Assembly (NCBI GenBank): GCA_964422585.1
Contig: CAYRBH010000006.1
Location: 1-59,332, forward strand
Origin: an uncultured Gammaproteobacteria bacterium
Lineage (GTDB): Bacteria; Patescibacteriota; Patescibacteriia; UBA1558; 2-01-FULL-52-15
DNA length: 59,332 bases
Direction of reading: 5' to 3'
Shown here: piece by piece, positions 327 through 59,332 of the stretch
How positions within the stretch are numbered: the stretch's first letter is position 1
How the letters are laid out: each line of letters begins with the position of its first letter
Made by a program: the position numbers and the translations under genes
Notes under the pieces: generated by a model
What the model was told of the DNA's origin: nothing
What the model saw: only the letters and a program-made list of their open reading frames with translations
Databases searched by the model: none

Positions 327-584
327 GCACAACACCGCGTGTGCGGCTTCGCGTATGGCTTCCGCTCACACCACTCTGATATAGTTCTTTTCACTTCACT
401 GTTCAGAGAGATGAAGAAGCATGTCCTATACACTTAGCTTCTTCGTTCGCTCCAGGCCGCTTCGCCTACATCTGCGCGTGTTCTTTTGCGCTCCATTTCA
501 TTACGCGCATTGCATTTGCCCTCCGTATCCACTTCGGGCATAATGCTATCACGCGCAGACGTCGCATACGCACATACGTTAGAC
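327..584 (+). repeat. attC-like site 1 (258 bp)
   Basis: GCACAAC-ACC-GCGTGTGCG ... CGCATACGC-ACATAC-GTTAGAC. Confidence 0.8.
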
Positions 585-845: not shown

Positions 846-981
846 GCCTAACACCCGACTTGCGGCTACGCTCGGGTTGCACCACTCGCTTCGCCTACAT
901 TCGCACGTGCAGCTTGCGCTCCGTATCCACTTCGCGCTAAGCTTAGCACGTGCGAACGTCGCAAGTCGGTATACGTTGTAC
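846..981 (+). repeat. attC-like site 2 (136 bp)
   Basis: GCCTAAC-AC-CCGACTTGCG ... CGCAAGTCGG-TATAC-GTTGTAC; perfect 10-bp stem. Confidence 0.85.
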
Positions 982-1035
982 GCCATAGTGAAAAGTAAAA
1001 TAGTTTAGTATTTTAAATAATTACCGTTAAAAAAT

Positions 1036-1341
1036 ATGGCACTCAAGGCATGGTTCAAACCACCACTGAGTAAGTTTACACTGATGGTTTTTTTCTTTGT
1101 CTGCTCGGCCTTTTCTGTTTTCTACACTATAGGATGTATAGCAACATGTTCTGCGACTTTCGATAAGATTCTGGTCTCTATGTTTGTGGTCATAAGCGCT
1201 CCTGCAGCATTGATTTTGAAGTTTCCAGGCGTCTTCGGTGAGAGCACCTTGCCTTTATCCCTGTTACTGACCCCCGTTTATTGGTACTTTCTTGCCAGCC
1301 TGATTGTGTGGCTTTTTTCACAACGTAAGAAGTCAAACTAA
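1036..1341 (+). CDS. Hypothetical membrane protein (cassette 2)
   Basis: 101 aa, about 3 hydrophobic segments, fills the cassette. Confidence 0.75.
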   Translation: MALKAWFKPPLSKFTLMVFFFVCSAFSVFYTIGCIATCSATFDKILVSMFVVISAPAALILKFPGVFGESTLPLSLLLTPVYWYFLASLIVWLFSQRKKSN

Positions 1342-1381
1342 TACAAATTACTAGTTCGTTGCCATTACTTTTCACTACAGC

Positions 1382-1634
1382 GCACAACACCTGGTGTGCG
1401 GCTTCGCGTGTGGCTTACGCTCGCCTGTACTACAGAGGGCGAAGCTAGTTAAAGGGTTAGCTTTTAAGGAAGTAGACCTTATGTAAGGTAAGAGCTTCTT
1501 CGCTCGCTCCAGGCCGCTTCGCCTACATTGCTTGTCCGCGTGGATGCGGACTTGTAGCACTCCGTCTCCACTCCGTGCTATCATTATATCGCCCACGCGG
1601 ACTGCGCAACGTCGCATACGCATATACGTTGTAC
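1382..1634 (+). repeat. attC-like site 3 (253 bp, degenerate inner stem)
   Basis: GCACAAC-ACCTGGTGTGCG ... CGCATACGCATATAC-GTTGTAC. Confidence 0.75.
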
Positions 1635-1658
1635 GAAATTCAATAACCTTTTAAGACA

Positions 1659-2057
1659 ATGAAAAAAATCATCTCTACTTCTAAGGCGCCAGCAGCCCCG
1701 AAGTTACTTTCGCAGGCAGTTTTGGAGGATTCGAAATATCATTTGGAAATATCAGGGCAGATTGGACTCAATCCTGAAACAGGAAAGCTCGTTGAAGGTG
1801 GAGTTGAAGCTGAAATGAAACAAGCTCTACAAAATATCGAGGCGATACTTTCTGAAGTGGGCTGGACTTTAGAAAACGTAACAAAAGTACGTTTGTTTCT
1901 GACCGATATGACAGACTACGCTAAAGTCAACGAAATCTATATGGCTAAATTCACCCAAAACTTGCCTGCGAGAATTGCCCTTGCTGTAAAAGCACTTCCT
2001 TTGTCTGCTACTATCGAGATTGAATGTGTGGCTGCTGGTGATATTGCTAAAATGTAA
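1659..2057 (+). CDS. ridA: RidA/YjgF/YER057c family imine deaminase (cassette 3)
   Basis: SQAV, ISGQIG, QALQNIEAIL, LPAR and ALP..IEIEC motifs; conserved Arg present. Confidence 0.9.
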   Translation: MKKIISTSKAPAAPKLLSQAVLEDSKYHLEISGQIGLNPETGKLVEGGVEAEMKQALQNIEAILSEVGWTLENVTKVRLFLTDMTDYAKVNEIYMAKFTQNLPARIALAVKALPLSATIEIECVAAGDIAKM

Positions 2058-2079
2058 CTCGGAGAGGTTATTGAACTTC

Positions 2080-2232
2080 GCACAACACCGCGTATGCGGC
2101 TCAGGTGAGCTTCTTCTTTAGACTTCATTTATTGTAGGTCGCTCACCTTCGGCCTACATTCGCTGCTGGTATCACTCCTACCGTCGTGATATTATACCAG
2201 CAGCGAACGTCGCATACGCGTATACGTTAGGT
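2080..2232 (+). repeat. attC-like site 4 (153 bp)
   Basis: GCACAAC-AC-CGCGTATGCG ... CGCATACGCG-TATAC-GTTAGGT. Confidence 0.85.
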
Positions 2233-2282
2233 GAAATTTTTGAACCCCTAAATGGGGTTTTGTTTTTTGATCAATAGTGAAA

Positions 2283-2328
2283 GGGTCGCATCCTTCTTCG
2301 AGCTTAGCTCTAGGATAGGATGCGACCC
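2283..2328 (-). terminator. Hairpin downstream of the inverted cassette gene
   Basis: GGGTCGCATCCT ... AGGATGCGACCC 12-bp stem. Confidence 0.55.
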
Positions 2329-2340
2329 CCGTGATTGCGG

Positions 2341-2712
2341 CTACTTGCCGTGCTTCTTCTCGAGATTCGCGAGAACGCTCTCGACCTCGTTGACCTCGAT
2401 CGCGTCGCTCTTGGCCGGACGGTACCTGTTGTACTGGTCGACTGCGTCGGCGAGAACGCGGCGCGCCTCGTCGATCGAATTGACTTTGGTCGTCCTCTGG
2501 ACGAGAGGCGCTGACGAATTGAGAACCGTCTTCTGAATGTCGCCGACGACGACGCTGACGTTGTAGATCGGCCCGTTCTTCGAAGGGTTCTCGATGGCGC
2601 TGACCGTATAGGAGATGTTCTTGGAGGCAATCTTCTCCTCCATAGTGTCGCTGCAGGCGACCACCAGAGCCATCAAGAGACAAGGAACCACGAACCGCAT
2701 GAGCTTACCCAC
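2341..2712 (-). CDS. Hypothetical lipoprotein, inverted within cassette 4
   Basis: 123 aa, signal peptide with LVVAC lipobox, SD AAGGAAGG before GTG, GC-rich codons. Confidence 0.75.
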   Translation of the reverse strand: MGKLMRFVVPCLLMALVVACSDTMEEKIASKNISYTVSAIENPSKNGPIYNVSVVVGDIQKTVLNSSAPLVQRTTKVNSIDEARRVLADAVDQYNRYRPAKSDAIEVNEVESVLANLEKKHGK

Positions 2713-2761
2713 TGTTTCCCTTCCTTTCTCGGCATAGCCGAAGTGCGGACGTTAAGAAAAT

Positions 2762-2790
2762 AATATAACATATTTAAAAATTTGTGTCAA
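2762..2790 (-). promoter_or_regulatory. sigma70 promoter for the inverted cassette gene
   Basis: TTGACA-17 bp-TATATT on the minus strand. Confidence 0.7.
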
Positions 2791-2877
2791 TATCTACCAA
2801 AAAACAAAAGCATATTTCTATAGGTTTTATTAATCCTACTAACATAAAAGCTTGTTGAGAGGGGGTTCAAAAACATC

Positions 2878-3087
2878 ACCTAACACCGCGTATACGGTTG
2901 CGCCTTGTCTATCTCGTAGGTTGGAAACTAGATTAGTCCAAGACTTCTAGAAGACAAGGAACTAACTCATGGTTGCTCCACCTACATTCCCTTCCTCACC
3001 CCGCTGCTCTTGCCCTCCGCTCTCGCTTCGGGCATCATTATAGCAGCGGGGTTCGTCGGGAACGTCGCATACGCGTATACGTTAGGT
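2878..3087 (+). repeat. attC-like site 5 (210 bp)
   Basis: ACCTAAC-AC-CGCGTATACG ... CGCATACGCG-TATAC-GTTAGGT. Confidence 0.85.
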
Positions 3088-3105
3088 GAAATTTATCTCC
3101 TCATA

Positions 3106-3645
3106 ATGTCTTCTATCTCTACTAATTGGCATGTTGTAACTGGCGGGCCTTCGTCAGGAAAAACAAAGACTCTAGAGTATCTGTATGTTCTTGGGAACAC
3201 AATTGTCCCTGAAATGGCGAGAATGCTCATTGAAGATGAAATGATGACAGGGAAAACATTACAGGAGATACGACAACATGAGGGGAGTTTTCAAGAGCGC
3301 GTGTTGCAAATGAAAATAGAGACCGAGAACCAATTGGACCCACAAAAACATACATTTCTTGATCGAGGCATTGGAGATAGTATTGCATACTTTCGTCTGA
3401 ATTCTATGGATCCTCAACCTGTTTTTGAAGCATCAAAAAAGAGAATATATAAAACCGTATTTTTACTCGAACAACTTCCTTTTCAATCGGATGAAGCGAG
3501 AACAGAAAATGAAGACTCAGCCCGCCAGATCAGTGATTTGCTCTTTGAAGCGTACTCACAATTAAAATACAAAGTCATTAGAGTTCCCGTAATGCCTGTT
3601 CATGAGCGAGCGGTTTTTATTCTGGCGGAGATAAACATCACCTAA
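3106..3645 (+). CDS. Predicted P-loop ATPase, AAA_28/NadR-kinase-like (cassette 5)
   Basis: VVTGGPSSGKT Walker A and FLDRGIGD. The ORF-track extension to 3010 is attC sequence. Stop codon lies within R''. Confidence 0.85.
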   Translation: MSSISTNWHVVTGGPSSGKTKTLEYLYVLGNTIVPEMARMLIEDEMMTGKTLQEIRQHEGSFQERVLQMKIETENQLDPQKHTFLDRGIGDSIAYFRLNSMDPQPVFEASKKRIYKTVFLLEQLPFQSDEARTENEDSARQISDLLFEAYSQLKYKVIRVPVMPVHERAVFILAEINIT

Positions 3646-4259
3646 CACCGGATTGCCGATTCGCGAGCAAAAAACTTTTATAAAAGTAGCTAGTAAATAA
3701 AGCATCGTATGTTCATATCTGCCTACATAATAATCACTATCCTCATCATAACACTTGTTTTTCTATTACGAATGACAATAAGTACATTGGATGCCGTTCG
3801 TTGGTTAAACTTTAAAATAAATGTACTCGAACGATTGATTTACGAAAAAAAATTCGAACCTACCAAGAATGAGATTGAAAGCGCAGTAGATGCAACACTT
3901 GCTAACGATGTTGAGTACGCAGCAACAGTAAAAATGCTAAATAAATTTATTAAACGTGTTTATCGTAATAACGCCAGCAGTGGTCAAAAAACATTTAGGC
4001 ATATTATTGAGAAGAGGCTTGAAAACCCACAAAGCTACCAGATGGTGGCTATGGGTTTAATTAGTGCATCCGATGTCTATGAGACTACCGATATTTTTAA
4101 AGATGTGGATTTAGAGTCCGCGATCAAAAGATTTAAGGATAAATTTAAGAAGTGATTTTTTTGCTCGCTCATCCAAATTGCTTGTCCACTTAGCTGCTAT
4201 TTGAGATAATTATAGCAGCACGCGGACTGCGCAACTTCGGCAATCCGCATCCGTTAGGT
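3640..4259 (+). repeat. Giant attC-like site 6 (620 bp) enclosing CDS 3709..4155
   Basis: ACCTAAC-AC-CGGATTGCCGA at 3640 pairs with TCGGCAATCCG-CATCC-GTTAGGT ending 4259; no R'-type right half seen in between. Confidence 0.8.
3709..4155 (+). CDS. Hypothetical protein with N-terminal TM helix, nested inside attC site 6
   Basis: 148-aa open frame, AT-rich, flanked by 12-bp IR 3663-3674/4157-4168. Confidence 0.75.
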   Translation: MFISAYIIITILIITLVFLLRMTISTLDAVRWLNFKINVLERLIYEKKFEPTKNEIESAVDATLANDVEYAATVKMLNKFIKRVYRNNASSGQKTFRHIIEKRLENPQSYQMVAMGLISASDVYETTDIFKDVDLESAIKRFKDKFKK

Positions 4260-4300
4260 GAAATTTTTCAAAATCCCTTACTAATTAGGTCTTCATTAAG

Positions 4301-4714
4301 GTGAAAACAAGAGTAGTTGTAACCACCCTCATCGAAAAAGACGACCAGATTCTCTTCGGTAGGAAGAGGGTCAACGTTGGTCCTTATCCAAACACCTGGC
4401 ATTTGATTGGGGGCGGTGTTGAGGACGGAGAACCAGTCATTGAAGCCGTCAAGCGAGAGATCAAAGAAGAAGCCGGTATAGAAGTTGATCACATCACACC
4501 ACTAGGTTTCGACGAAGACTTCGAGCCGAATAAGGACGGCGAGATAACCCATTATATATTCCTAATTTTTCAGGCTCACTACGTCTCTGGTAAGTTACGA
4601 CCTGATGACGACATTGAGCATCTCGAATGGATTCCTAAGAGTAAACTAGCAACACTGGAACTTAATAGGCCAACGATTAAATATTTTAAAAAGGTGGGTT
4701 ATCTCGCCTCGTGA
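4301..4714 (+). CDS. NUDIX hydrolase (cassette 6)
   Basis: Nudix box GGGVEDGEPVIEAVKREIKEEAG. Confidence 0.9.
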   Translation: MKTRVVVTTLIEKDDQILFGRKRVNVGPYPNTWHLIGGGVEDGEPVIEAVKREIKEEAGIEVDHITPLGFDEDFEPNKDGEITHYIFLIFQAHYVSGKLRPDDDIEHLEWIPKSKLATLELNRPTIKYFKKVGYLAS

Positions 4715-4744
4715 CTATTCAATGGAAGGATTTTGAAAAACATC

Positions 4745-4934
4745 ACCTAACACCGCGTATGCGGTTGCGCCTTGTCTATCTCGTAGTCTCAATTCTAGAT
4801 TAGTTCAAGACTTCTAGAAGACAGGGAACTACTCATGGTGGCTCCACCTACATTCGTGCATGCAGCTTGCGCTCCGTATCCACTTCGCGCTAAGCTTAGC
4901 ATGCACGAACGTCGCATACGCGTATACGTTAGGT
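4745..4934 (+). repeat. attC-like site 7 (190 bp)
   Basis: ACCTAAC-AC-CGCGTATGCG ... CGCATACGCG-TATAC-GTTAGGT. Confidence 0.85.
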
Positions 4935-4952
4935 GAAATAATAAAAAATCAA

Positions 4953-5591
4953 ATGATTTTAGTAGAAATAATAATTTCTTTAATTTCTTCACTCGCTGCA
5001 ATACTGATATCTCTTTGGATTGATAGATTGCGACTTCCTAAATTATCTATTAAGGCTAGCGAAAGTGCTAACTCTGACAATATATATCCTTCGGGTCACC
5101 CGCACGCTAACGAACGATGGAAATTTTTTAGGGTTTCTGTTTCTAATAATTCTTTTTCTGGTTTATTTCGATGGATACCCCGCCAAACAGCTGAGAACTG
5201 TAGAGCAAAAATAGAGATTTATGAATCTAAGGACTCATCGCCCCTGTTTACTTTTGATGGTCGATGGGCATCAACGCCAGAAATTCCTCACATTCCTTCA
5301 CAAGCAATAGTTAAGTTATTTCACCCGGATCCAGTAACCATTGCGGTCGAGGAAAAAGAATACCTGGATGTTATTGTCAAAGCCGAAATTGATAACGATG
5401 CTTATGGCTGGAATAATGAAGCCTACATACACAACTGGAGAAACCCTAGCTATAAACTTGGCATTGGAGAATATAAAGTTAAAATAACCATTTCAACTCA
5501 AAACGGAAAATCGTTCGTTAGCGTGCTCGACTTAGCAGTTCGAAAAAAGACTGAAGACACCATACTTAAAAATAACAGCTTGTCGGCTTGA
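4953..5591 (+). CDS. Hypothetical protein with N-terminal membrane anchor (cassette 7)
   Basis: 212 aa from ATG 4953; the upstream ORF-track extension is attC sequence. Confidence 0.75.
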   Translation: MILVEIIISLISSLAAILISLWIDRLRLPKLSIKASESANSDNIYPSGHPHANERWKFFRVSVSNNSFSGLFRWIPRQTAENCRAKIEIYESKDSSPLFTFDGRWASTPEIPHIPSQAIVKLFHPDPVTIAVEEKEYLDVIVKAEIDNDAYGWNNEAYIHNWRNPSYKLGIGEYKVKITISTQNGKSFVSVLDLAVRKKTEDTILKNNSLSA

Positions 5592-5605
5592 TTTTTTATT
5601 ACATC

Positions 5606-6326
5606 ACCTAACACCGGATATCCGGCTTCGCCAAAAAATATAAACAATTTTATTCCAAAGATATGAAAAAAATATTAATTATTCCACTATTCATTCTCAT
5701 TCTGGGCGGCTGTTCAAATCAGAACGCAAAAATTGACGAACAAAACAAAAAGATTGATGAGTTGAATAACAAAGTCACAGAATTAACTGCATCCAATAGT
5801 AAAAGTGACTTAGATCTTCAAGCTAAGTGTGCCACCCAAGCTCAAAAGGCTTTCGAAGACTTTAAAAAAAGTTACGCAGACTCACAATATTATTCGTATG
5901 CGCAAGAAAGCCACTATAACAAAACGTATGACAGGTGTTTTGTGCTAGTATCTTATTTAGTGAACTCTGGTCCTGTCTATAACGGAAAACCGTTCAGGCA
6001 AGCAACAAATGGAGAAGATCTATTGGATGCATACGGTAATAGAGATTTAGCTTCTTGCGAAATATTTGGCAACGACATACCAAACAACCAAACATGTATT
6101 GTAGAAGGAAATGGCGCAACCTATAAAGACTACACCGATTACGTCGTTCCGAGGCTAGAGTTGCCGCCCCAAAAATAGTGTTAGCAGAAAAAATAAAATT
6201 GTTTATATTTTTGGCTCGCGCAAATTGCTTGTCTGCTTAGGCGGTGGGTAGCGCTCCGTTGGGCTTCGCGCTACAATTATACCGCCACGCAGACTGCGCA
6301 ACTTCGGATATCCGCCTATGTTGTAC
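5606..6326 (+). repeat. Giant attC-like site 8 (721 bp) enclosing CDS 5663..6178
   Basis: ACCTAAC-AC-CGGATATCCG at 5606 pairs with CGGATATCCG-CCTAT-GTTGTAC ending 6326. Confidence 0.8.
5663..6178 (+). CDS. Hypothetical lipoprotein, nested inside attC site 8
   Basis: MKKILIIPLFILILGGC lipobox followed by a coiled coil; 171 aa; flanked by 24/25-bp IR. Confidence 0.8.
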   Translation: MKKILIIPLFILILGGCSNQNAKIDEQNKKIDELNNKVTELTASNSKSDLDLQAKCATQAQKAFEDFKKSYADSQYYSYAQESHYNKTYDRCFVLVSYLVNSGPVYNGKPFRQATNGEDLLDAYGNRDLASCEIFGNDIPNNQTCIVEGNGATYKDYTDYVVPRLELPPQK

Positions 6327-6374
6327 GAAATTGGCTTTCCTTAGATTATATATTAGTAAATTAACATCTTTTCT

Positions 6375-6608
6375 ATGACACTTGCAAAAATAATAGCTCT
6401 GAGCGGGATCATCCTCTTTATAGCAGGGCAAGTATTTGCTAACGTTATTCATCCTAATACCAGTGGTGGCGCTGAATTTGCAGGACTCGTCTTCCTTGTA
6501 GCCTTTTATGGCGGCATTGCACTTTTCATTATTGGCGCGATGATAGGTGTTTACAAAAAACCACAAGGTCAGCGCAATCAAAAAAAGGAACCAACTCAAC
6601 AGAACTAG
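6375..6608 (+). CDS. Small 2-TM membrane protein (cassette 8)
   Basis: 77 aa, two hydrophobic helices, basic tail, fills the cassette. Confidence 0.7.
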   Translation: MTLAKIIALSGIILFIAGQVFANVIHPNTSGGAEFAGLVFLVAFYGGIALFIIGAMIGVYKKPQGQRNQKKEPTQQN

Positions 6609-6630
6609 AAACGAACGGAAAGCCAACTTC

Positions 6631-6811
6631 GCACAACACCGGATATGCGGTTGCGCGAGGCTTTGAGAGGGTGGTAGACTAGATACTGTTCTTACACTAT
6701 CTAGAAGTATAGGGATTTCTCATGGGGCTCCACCTACATTTGCGGGTGGTAGCGCTCCTCCGTCGCGGGATCATACCACCCGCAAACGTCGCACATCCGT
6801 ATACGTTAGGT
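6631..6811 (+). repeat. attC-like site 9 (181 bp)
   Basis: GCACAAC-AC-CGGATATGCG ... CGCACATCCG-TATAC-GTTAGGT. Confidence 0.85.
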
Positions 6812-6837
6812 GAAATAAGTTATTTGTTTGTTAGGCA

Positions 6838-7335
6838 ATGAACTTAGTAGCATACAACCCAGAGTGGGAGAAAATTTTTCTGACAGAGAAGGAAACAATC
6901 GCTCAAGCTCTCGGCAATGACTGCCTCGAAATTGAACATATAGGTAGTACAGCCATTCCTGGTATTCTTTCAAAACCAATTGTTGATATAGCTGTACGCA
7001 TACCCTCTCTCAAGGCCAGCGAAAAATACTTAGCCCCTCTTCAGGCTATAGGGTATACCTACTTTCCAGAACGATCATCTGTTGAGCGAATGTTCTTAGC
7101 GAAAGGAGTTCCTCCAACGCTTCACTTATCACTGACGGAGTCAGAAAAATTTTCTTATTGGAAACGACAAATACTTTTTCGAGATTACTTACGCTCACAT
7201 GCAGATATTGCCAAAGAATACGAAATACTTAAAGCAAATCTTATTCAAAAATATCCGGATATTAGTCAGGGTTATTCTGATGGGAAAGGCGAATTTGTTA
7301 AAAAAGTTCTTTCTCTCACAGAAACAAACAAATAA
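6838..7335 (+). CDS. GrpB/UPF0157 family protein (cassette 9)
   Basis: YNPEW, IEHIGSTAIPG..SKPIVDI, LFRDYLR and Y..LK..L..Y..GK motifs. Confidence 0.9.
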   Translation: MNLVAYNPEWEKIFLTEKETIAQALGNDCLEIEHIGSTAIPGILSKPIVDIAVRIPSLKASEKYLAPLQAIGYTYFPERSSVERMFLAKGVPPTLHLSLTESEKFSYWKRQILFRDYLRSHADIAKEYEILKANLIQKYPDISQGYSDGKGEFVKKVLSLTETNK

Positions 7336-7343
7336 CTTACATC

Positions 7344-7363
7344 ACCTAACACCGCGTATGCGG
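7344..7363 (+). repeat. Left half only of attC-like site 10 (array end)
   Basis: ACCTAACACCGCGTATGCGG, then 7 bp and the stop of a convergent host gene; no matching right half seen. Confidence 0.75.
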
Positions 7364-7370
7364 CGCTGAT

Positions 7371-55184: not shown

Positions 55185-55261
55185 TGGTCGGGGATGCCGG
55201 ACTCGAACCGGCGGCCTCCTGCTCCCAAAGCAGGCGCGCTAGCCAACTGCGCCAATCCCCG
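55185..55261 (-). tRNA. tRNA-Pro(TGG)
   Basis: Cloverleaf, loop TTTGGGA, CCA. Confidence 0.92.
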
Positions 55262-55289
55262 TTAAGCGTTCGTATGACTCAACTGCAGA

Positions 55290-55364
55290 TGGTGCCGAGT
55301 GTCAGAATTGAACTGACGACGCCAGCCTCTTCAGGGCTGCGCTCTACCACTGAGCTAACTCGGC
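55290..55364 (-). tRNA. tRNA-Phe(GAA)
   Basis: Cloverleaf, loop CTGAAGA, CCA. Confidence 0.92.
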
Positions 55365-55380
55365 TTCACCTAGAGTCAAA

Positions 55381-55457
55381 TGGTGGGCATGGGAGGACTC
55401 GAACCTCCGACCTCTACATTATCAGTGTAGCGCTCTAACCACCTGAGCTACATGCCC
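55381..55457 (-). tRNA. tRNA-Ile(GAT)
   Basis: Cloverleaf, loop CTGATAA, CCA. Confidence 0.92.
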
Positions 55458-59113: not shown

Positions 59114-59293
59114 GAAGAAAATGTTAATCACACCTCAACAACTAACAGGTGACAGGTTGCTCAATACTCTGTTCCACCAAGATACCGACATTGAATTGCT
59201 TCAATGTGGTACACGGCATCTGTTTACGTACGTATAACAGATGCATCGACCTGTCCGACATAGCTCGCGCTAGTATCGAACTGGTTACTCCTT

Positions 59294-59332
59294 AGAAAGG
59301 AGGTGATCCATCCACAGCTTCCGCTACGGATG
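59294..59332 (-). rRNA. rrs: 16S rRNA, 3' end (partial)
   Basis: Minus strand reads CATCCGTAGCGGAAGCTGTGGATGGATCACCTCCTTTCT: helix 45 and intact anti-SD. Confidence 0.93.

Follow-up and report, generated by a model that had tools for sequence, protein, structure and literature searches.

The first 7365 nucleotides of the stretch of DNA analyzed here (59,332 nt in full, hereafter the window) hold an integron-like array of ten co-oriented cassettes on the + strand, each with an attC-type site at its end; the last of these sites (7340–7365) is present as an R''–L'' half only. The open reading frames (ORFs) of the array are small, tightly packed and read from the + strand, with structured repeats between them. 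Ten left halves built as (R'')AAC-AC-(L'')N10, recognizable by the motif AACACC-N7-CGG at positions 331, 850, 1386, 2084, 2882, 3644, 4749, 5610, 6635 and 7348, alternate with ten right halves of the form (L')N10-N5-GTTRNNY, in which the G of R' is found at positions 3, 578, 975, 1628, 2226, 3081, 4253, 4928, 6320 and 6805. Ordinary sites in this array span 136–255 nt. The present work concerns the site at 5606–6326, which is 721 nt long and encloses a complete gene. We consider it fairly probable that it represents a single attC-type site closing a two-gene cassette (4929–6320) in an array on the chromosome of an ultra-small, groundwater-type member of the Patescibacteria, and that the arrangement is maintained rather than being the wreck of a former site, because every related site carries, on a common scaffold, another gene and another inverted repeat (IR), and because the stem formed by the L boxes keeps pairing through compensatory changes across 0.5–1.7 kb.

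The cassette begins at T4929, within the R' of the preceding site (GTTAGGT, 4928–4934), and ends at G6320; it consists of a first gene followed by the 721-nt site, the crossover of which is predicted between G6320 and T6321. Its start, TTAGGTGA, is the exact complement of TCACCTAA at 5604–5611. Gene 1 (4953–5591, + strand) encodes a protein of 212 aa without a Pfam domain, with 135 homologues elsewhere, and is bracketed by a 14-nt exact cognate IR: the left arm TAATAAAAAATCAA (4939–4952) starts 10 nt after the TT of R', and the right arm TTGATTTTTTATTA (5588–5601) overlaps the stop codon of the gene. A circular form of this cassette would read ...CCTATG|TTAGGTGAAATAATAAAAAATC, with position 6320 joined to 4929.

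The left half of the site itself (5606–5624, + strand) is composed of R'' ACCTAAC (5606–5612), an AC spacer and L'' CGGATATCCG (5615–5624). Five linker bases separate L'' from the left arm of a second, inner IR, GCCAAAAAATATAAACAATTTTATT (5630–5654), which closes what we refer to as arm 1 and encloses the nested gene (5663–6178), predicted to encode a lipoprotein of 171 aa. The right arm, AATAAAATTGTTTATATTTTTGGC (6192–6215), begins 13 nt past the stop codon, and 8 nt separate its end from the ATTGC of arm 2. After six linker bases comes arm 2, a conserved hairpin (6222–6304) with the base stem AAATTGC (6222–6228)/GCAACTT (6298–6304), and then the right half (6305–6326), made up of L' CGGATATCCG (6305–6314), a CCTAT spacer and R' GTTGTAC (6320–6326). 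L'' and L' form a perfect 10-bp pair and ACCTAAC fits the consensus RYYYAAC; R' differs from GTTRRRY at one position and derives from the next cassette. The inner IR comprises 24 pairs and one extra A, and its exact core of 21 nt is longer than that in any of 300 dinucleotide shuffles of 5600–6335 (mean 8.9, maximum 15). A preliminary description made from the letters alone is correct in all its coordinates: the half-sites 5606–5624 and 6305–6326 are complementary and a near-perfect IR surrounds the 171-aa ORF. The second arm also matches those of two further sites of the array (at ~1379 and ~3636), the shared segments being ATTGCTTGTC at 1527, 4177 and 6224 and GACTGCGCAAC at 1600, 4225 and 6292. 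An assembly chimera or artefact is ruled out by two independent Logan assemblies (SRR12313479/80), which are identical to the window over 4950–6700.

The base stem of arm 2 contains a G.T wobble on the bottom strand, and its tip carries the motif CTCCG-N6-CTTCG. This tip motif, in the form GC-N-CTCCG-N5-6-CTYCG-N-GC, is present in most sites of the window (515–535, 913–933, 1554–1575, 3009–3030, 4866–4887 and 6248–6268) and in related loci, and could be a protein-binding element. A further sequence, GTGTTAGCAG at 6178–6187, lies directly after the nested stop codon and 10 nt before the right IR arm, at the spacing seen for outer IRs. It was considered as a relic R' box and rejected, given its absence from other long sites; the resemblance is probably due to chance.

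A second gene-bearing site of 620 nt lies upstream in the same array (3640–4259, + strand; R'' 3640–3646, R' 4253–4259). It has the same order of parts on a homologous scaffold, with L'' CGGATTGCCG (3649–3658), a 12-bp IR (3663–3674/4157–4168), arm 2 (4175–4237) and L' CGGCAATCCG (4238–4247), and encloses an ORF of 148 aa (3709–4155). Neither this ORF nor the IR is related to its counterpart in the 721-nt site, as had been proposed. The 12-nt length of the IR of this sister site is by itself not significant (shuffle maximum 13), and the two sites are not independent cases, since both belong to one scaffold family.

To find further members, an arm-2 pattern common to both long sites of the window and to the ordinary one at 1379 was searched against GTDB genomes and JGI/ENA metagenomes, complemented by a left-half pattern and by the contexts of recombinase homologues. 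This gave 12 gene-bearing sites in nine distinct loci, namely the two in the window and ten in contigs of metagenome-assembled genomes (MAGs) or metagenomes, and their inserts are all different. They hold ORFs of 107 aa (L084, identical to L101), 113 aa (L088), 179 aa with a Ham1 domain (L098), 144 aa resembling DpnI (L099a), 94 aa (L102a), 131 aa (L102b), 181 aa of the histidine phosphatase family (L110) and 105 aa (L111, identical to L112 and L113); L099b carries an insert of 1.6 kb with an antisense ORF and a NYN gene, and L114 (identical to L115) one of ~1 kb with an antisense ORF of 263 aa. A gene lies on the sense strand in 10 of the 12 inserts. Modules measure 323–1616 nt, inserts 94–263 codons and whole sites 0.5–1.7 kb. 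Several matches to enzyme families in Pfam (Ham1 1.5e-34, His_Phos_1 1.7e-30, NYN 8e-20) indicate that the nested genes are bona fide. The preliminary description had envisaged a recurrent programme rather than an accident; the ten additional sites, each with its own IR, together with the covariation and the compensatory L-box changes described below, uphold that view. Other scans were negative: an exact right-half scan (GTCGCATACGCRTATACGTTRKRYG) of GTDB genomes and a left-scaffold scan of viral contigs each gave 0 matches, the contexts of homologues of cassette gene 1 (P0003, P0027) lie outside this site family and offer no empty-site comparator, and a simple R''/L''/L'/R' scan was too noisy to serve as a site finder. 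The contig of L110 (CAZPQR010000090.1) is labelled as uncultured Gammaproteobacteria yet carries a recombinase of Patescibacteria type, an attI and the site scaffold; it is probably misbinned.

Likeness between loci is limited to the scaffold, and the inserts are never similar. Positions 6216–6335 of the window are 95% identical to 1182–1301 of L102, whereas IRs and genes are unrelated, and homology stops within 1–2 nt of the IR ends. Inner IRs of long sites comprise 8–25 bp with at most one mismatch or bulge; the right arm ends 7–9 nt before the arm-2 anchor (13 nt in L098) in the 10 sites measured, and the exact cognate run across the two sides of a site averages 13.9 nt, compared with 6.3 nt (maximum 12) for non-cognate combinations. 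A gene between 24-bp IRs superficially resembles an element with terminal IRs, so that a non-autonomous transposon similar to a miniature inverted-repeat transposable element (MITE), inserted into the site with a passenger gene, might come to mind. We regard this as extremely improbable: each of the 12 sites has a different IR, neither a transposase nor a target-site duplication is present (the window site is flanked by CTTC and TCGC), several IRs have an outer portion (CGAGC/GCTCG) that is part of the conserved scaffold, and no copy of a module was found elsewhere. Nor did Pfam reveal a mobility domain in any of the nested ORFs.

Seven ordinary sites fold on the bottom strand as a three-way junction, made up of the R/L stem, a variable arm 1 and, beside L', the conserved arm 2; in each of the seven, the top strand is the less stable one. 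In the 721-nt site, the place of the variable arm 1 is occupied by the IR-flanked gene. Its bottom strand would accordingly fold into a junction of the R''/R' and L''/L' stem, arm 2, and an arm 1 that is here a 586-nt module, with the lipoprotein gene in its own 24-bp IR abutting the conserved junction on both sides. Both the minimum free energy (MFE) and the centroid fold of the 736-nt bottom strand retain the R/L stem, arm 2 and the long IR (z = -4.9), and the bottom-strand fold of the sister site likewise retains all three. The L stem has no extrahelical bases; the asymmetry of the structure consists of a bottom-strand bulge of 3 nt that separates the R box from the L box. For whole long sites, the MFE values of top and bottom strand show no consistent asymmetry because the structure of the gene itself dominates.

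Evolutionary support for this fold comes from the bottom strands of 11 sites, aligned after each site had been reduced to its scaffold and the outermost 10 nt of either IR arm, with the gene excised. RNAalifold returned a three-way junction of 38 pairs, 28 of which show compensatory double changes. Overall, 97.1% of cells are paired, compared with 78% in shuffles (none of 500 as high) and 28–42% in slid-partner controls. The L stem, the strands of which lie on opposite sides of the gene, is paired to 100% with six covarying pairs. Relative to the family consensus CGGATATCCG, the sister site (CGGATTGCCG/CGGCAATCCG, 3649/4238) has two base pairs changed compensatorily, and the L boxes of L099b (CGGATATCTG/CAGATATCC) have one, across 1.7 kb. 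In a cassette of the L099 locus (reverse strand, ~850–975), GATAGAC/GTCTATC replaces the usual GTT.../...AAC of the R box; here the crossover triplet, invariant elsewhere, has changed compensatorily.

These partner relationships bear on the idea that each long site is a relic of two fused cassettes, joined by partial deletions that left half-sites from different attCs and a non-functional site. Partial loss of attC is well documented in class 1 integrons (PMC8876359), and in most cases an ordinary ORF precedes the long site. However, two precise deletions at the same junction nucleotides would have been needed in 12 sites, no second R''–L'' is found downstream of the nested gene, and L'' and L' around the gene covary as partners. 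In addition, the canonical compartment of L099b is ~100 nt long and has no ORF, so that its entire cargo lies within the site, and the two nearest homologues of the nested gene are chromosomal and not in cassettes. Taken together, we judge this origin to be very improbable.

The polarity of mismatches indicates which strand is folded. The G.T wobble at the base of arm 2 is on the bottom strand in all 11 sites and would be an A.C mismatch on the top strand; the R boxes GCACAAC/GTTGTAC have the same polarity, with G.T on the bottom and A.C on the sense strand. This favors bottom-strand DNA, and not mRNA, as the folded species of the scaffold. A role at the RNA level, in which the IRs serve not in DNA folding but in the polycistronic transcript, where they enclose ORFs for RNase III-like processing or for stability, would fit with stop codons that overlap the right IR arm or lie within 13 nt of it (9 of 10 sites), with the bracketing of ORFs whether nested or ordinary, and with the predominance of sense-strand genes (10 of 12 inserts). 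It is at odds with the mismatch polarity of the scaffold, with the greater stability of the bottom strand in the seven ordinary sites, and with the two inserts that include antisense genes and still have an IR (L099b and L114). Mismatches inside the IRs are mixed in strand polarity, which constrains this explanation less for the IRs alone; we nonetheless consider it unlikely.

A maintained site, the reading that we prefer, raises the question of what the inner IR contributes. In a DNA partition function, the L stem pairs with a probability of 0.98–0.99 in both window sites (5606 and 3636), L102a and L098, with the IR intact or with its left arm shuffled; the same shuffling lowers the probability from 0.97 to 0.80–0.85 in L088 and from 0.99 to 0.30–0.90 in L102b. 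At equilibrium, the IR would therefore appear to give at most modest help to the folding of the core, and any role may lie in the speed of folding in transient single-stranded DNA or in the shape of the junction. Most likely, the IR would close the arm such that the junction takes the shape that it has in ordinary sites and the two halves meet quickly while the DNA is transiently single-stranded. Long variable structures cost classical sites up to 4 logs of recombination in replicative conditions, a cost not seen when single-stranded DNA is delivered (PMC8946536); replicative conditions would thus be the setting in which closure of the arm may pay. Within such a cassette, the second gene would travel with the site that mobilizes the first, and could not be recombined away from that site.

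Inverted repeats around genes are, however, not special to the long sites, but a general property of the family. In 8 of the 10 cassettes of the window, a cassette-specific exact IR of 9–17 bp surrounds the ORF, starting exactly 10 nt after the TT of R' and ending just before R'' (within 976–7350, for example 4264–4276/4729–4741 and 6816–6832/7325–7341); non-cognate combinations give a mean of 4.9 and a maximum of 9. ORF-bracketing outer IRs are also found in L110, L111 and L093. The stem of a circularized cassette would then read IR, R and L in succession, capped at one end by the gene loop and opening at the other into the junction arms, and the nested gene would form a second IR-closed gene loop on the opposite side of the core.

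Two further explanations concern the IRs. One is that they are a by-product of palindromes: genes landed illegitimately in the loop of arm 1, and template switching at a quasi-palindrome lengthened a stem that was already there into the unique sequence beside it, giving perfect, gene-specific IRs that were never selected for recombination. The long sites might then be functional or not. Template switching that perfects quasi-palindromes is established in bacteria. In agreement with it, every IR borders directly on the conserved junction and runs inward from it, ordinary cassettes have a similar unique stem extension at the R box at the fixed 10-nt offset, near-identical scaffolds such as those of the window and L102 lose homology at the IR ends, and folding at equilibrium shows little need for an IR. 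It leaves unexplained why the inserts of all 12 sites share one identical junction position and why all nine complete scaffolds of the type L''-ATTCG...CTCATC-arm 2 carry an insert (the sister site, L084, L088, L098, L102b, L099b, L110, L111 and L114), and the compensatory L-box changes (two base pairs in the sister site, one in L099b) point to selection on the pairing of the halves; we hold it to be rather unlikely. The other is offered as a tentative suggestion that we would not expect to be correct: arm 1 would be a second cargo port, with modules of a gene between IRs loaded or exchanged by a dedicated process that targets hairpin loops and also makes the IR-bracketed ordinary ORFs, and the private IRs would be the footprint of cassette manufacture.

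The enzyme that would act on these sites can be approached through related loci. In L110, L111, L114 and L116, a tyrosine recombinase of 270–303 aa is encoded divergently upstream of a conserved attI-like sequence. The latter (~45 nt, ...ctagctattatgtcaataggttcgccaacccgct, ending in GTTAGGTGA) is followed by the junction GTT and the first cassette, and is found in L110, L102, L111, L114 and L116; the junction reads GTTATGC or GTTAGCG in the L114 and L116 arrays, and in L110 and L111 this platform lies directly upstream of gene-bearing cassettes. The attI-like sequence is not present in the window, and a scan of GTDB for its pattern recovered only L110 again. The L110 recombinase scores 228 with the NCBIfam model NF040815 (XerA; cut-off 220) and 212 with TIGR02249 (integron integrase; cut-off 265). 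It aligns end to end with archaeal XerA (4A8E; 2e-44) and in two pieces, covering both catalytic halves, with the integron integrase VchIntIA (2A3V; 8e-41), having 21 residues in place of the 64 residues 182–245 of IntIA. Among Patescibacteria, it has 3092 relatives at E <= 1e-40.

The position of the crossover in this family is reflected in the cassette boundaries. In all ten cassettes of the window, the 5' end is complementary to the cassette's own R'' and this extends beyond the 7-bp core, as in the pairs TTAGGTGA/TCACCTAA, TTGTACGAA/TTCGCACAA, TTGTACGCC/GCGCACAA and TTAGACGCC/GGCGCCTAA; such a 5' end, cognate to the R'' of the same cassette, is the product expected of a crossover that falls between G and TT in R'. 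L114 contains a 171-nt cassette start twice, 828 nt apart (reverse strand): one copy follows attI (...cccactG|TT), the other an attC (...ctggccA|TT). The two copies become identical precisely at the TT, a footprint of recombination at the predicted point. The second copy is shortened and joined to the TTGTACG of the next cassette, a junction suggestive of a secondary recombination site. The sequences flanking the array are syntenic between L111 and L114, but the cassettes of the two differ, as in sedentary integrons.

The sequences show the anatomy of the site, its recurrence, the covariation, the limits of the cassettes and the family's point of crossover; that the long sites still recombine and that the IR matters for their recombination is inferred. 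Several points weigh against our interpretation. R'' ACCTAAC of the 721-nt site faces a non-cognate R' GTTGTAC with ~4 pairs, which is usual in arrays but weakens the stem. The IR is dispensable for pairing of the L stem at equilibrium in four of the six modelled sites, and the proposal of the preliminary description that it lets the attC core fold is not supported. In the covariation test, the IR helix (helix 6) was anchored on IRs detected beforehand, which in part predetermines its score. As the array continues beyond the start of the window, the window itself contains no recombinase gene, and the relation of enzyme and site is therefore indirect; the recombinase of the related loci is Xer-like, without the insertion specific to IntI. 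Finally, most loci were found through an arm-2 pattern typical of long sites, which biases frequencies; a less biased value is ~4 of 17 sites (window, L111, L114 and L116).

The product of the nested gene has a lipobox (LILGGC), and an AlphaFold model (mean predicted local distance difference test score, pLDDT, 85) consists of the signal and lipobox region, a helix of 50 residues and a beta domain with three conserved cysteines. A search of the PDB for similar folds gave nothing significant (best E 0.18). A word-index search matched only the protein itself, and an exhaustive HMMER search gave 127 relatives, 17 of them at E <= 1e-10 (best identity 52%). The 171-aa protein is therefore not an orphan, and the initial view of the nested genes as envelope-targeted orphans does not hold in general; Ham1, His_Phos_1, NYN and DpnI-like proteins are among the nested products of other loci. 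Of the two nearest relatives of the 171-aa protein, both in ordinary chromosomal surroundings, one belongs to a tandem pair in a contig from groundwater and the other is encoded downstream of two tRNA genes; site-like flanks are absent from both. No promoter or terminator signal above background surrounds the nested gene, and we assume that it is expressed by read-through.

The cassette ORFs of the array belong to the AAA_28, NUDIX, GrpB and RidA families or, in several cases, have no Pfam domain; scans of the array with Rfam and for promoters and terminators gave nothing specific. The cassette at 2227–3088 contains an antisense ORF (2341–2712) of high GC content (58%) and an AT-rich stretch (2713–2860) that could hold its own promoter; antisense ORFs of high GC content are also present in L089, L093, L099 and L114, without mutual homology. 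At its end (7340–7365), the array has the R''–L'' half-site CATCACCTAACACCGCGTATGCGG, with no right-half partner downstream within the window, and chromosomal genes follow. The L102 array likewise ends in a half-site, which is followed by a module of two 74-aa ORFs, possibly a toxin–antitoxin pair. A search for the sequence upstream of the window start through the cassette proteins gave nothing, as these have no database record.

Beyond the array, the window is ordinary chromosome, encoding PNPase, a Mg-chelatase-like protein, an IscS-type aminotransferase and tRNAs. A cluster of three tRNA genes lies at 55188–55457, and the 3' end of a 16S rRNA gene at 59290–59332 (- strand). The PNPase is 62–64% identical to those of Patescibacteria and Komeilibacteria MAGs, which identifies the host as a bacterium of the Candidate Phyla Radiation (CPR), in agreement with what had been guessed from the letters.

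Among the closest known systems are integron attC sites with a large variable terminal structure, such as the V. cholerae repeats (~120–130 nt). In both these and the sites of the window, R''–L''...L'–R' form an imperfect palindrome with an R' of the GTTRRRY type and a crossover before TT; the bottom strand folds better, the variable terminal structure is branched, sites are homogeneous within an array and cargos are unrelated. In the sites described here, by contrast, the variable structure holds whole genes in a private IR, the stem is extended past the R box by cassette-specific IRs, and evident extrahelical bases are absent from the L stem, with the 3-nt bulge between R and L in their place. 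The divergent arrangement of recombinase and attI-like sequence in the related loci corresponds to that of intI. Described attC sites are about 57–141 nt long, and IntegronFinder by default accepts 40–200 nt; the 721-nt and 620-nt sites of the window exceed the described range. The system works like an integron cassette array, but differs in the length of its sites and, in related loci, in the absence of the canonical IntI-specific domain.

Coding sequence or foreign DNA associated with an attC is known in several other forms. Group IIC-attC introns and IS1111-attC elements (PMC8876359) also place foreign DNA inside attC; these are autonomous elements that encode a reverse transcriptase or a transposase, have conserved termini and insert at defined positions, whereas the inserts described here are ordinary cellular genes, all different and without a mobility gene. 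In fused cassettes such as blaGES-1/aacA4 and blaOXA-10/aadA1 (PMC8876359), two genes are mobilized by one functional site, as would be the case here; there, however, it is the second gene that has a complete attC of its own, the upstream attC having been truncated or lost, whereas here one intact site with covarying halves surrounds the second gene. Short ORFs within attC (re-initiation of the ORF-11 type; PMC8876359) are likewise coding sequence inside a site, but specify peptides of a few codons, in contrast to the full genes with recognized domains found here. In none of these forms does an intact site enclose a cellular gene. Full-text searches of the literature gave no paper on integron arrays of Patescibacteria or on genes inside attC, and a review from 2021 does not include the Patescibacteria in its list of integron-bearing phyla and regards the formation of cassettes as an open question (PMC8618304).

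Judged from these comparisons, a gene inside an intact attC-type site is a recurrent, previously undescribed way of packaging genes in mobile cassettes, and a new variant of attC architecture. Integron sites have been viewed as short hairpins that are crippled by lengthening; the lineage described here keeps gene-bearing sites of 0.5–1.7 kb beside a Xer-like recombinase. Since standard tools assume sites below ~200 nt and an integrase with its signature insertion, such arrays would be missed or mis-segmented in current surveys, which is of relevance to both integron and CPR biology. If the long sites recombine, they would define the limit of cargo tolerance in structure-specific recombination and provide natural designs for genes embedded in recombination sites, and the identical scaffolds with unrelated modules would give a handle on the origin of new cassettes. 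Should arm 1 indeed be a second cargo port, the private IRs would represent a missing step in integron biology, namely how this lineage makes its cassettes.

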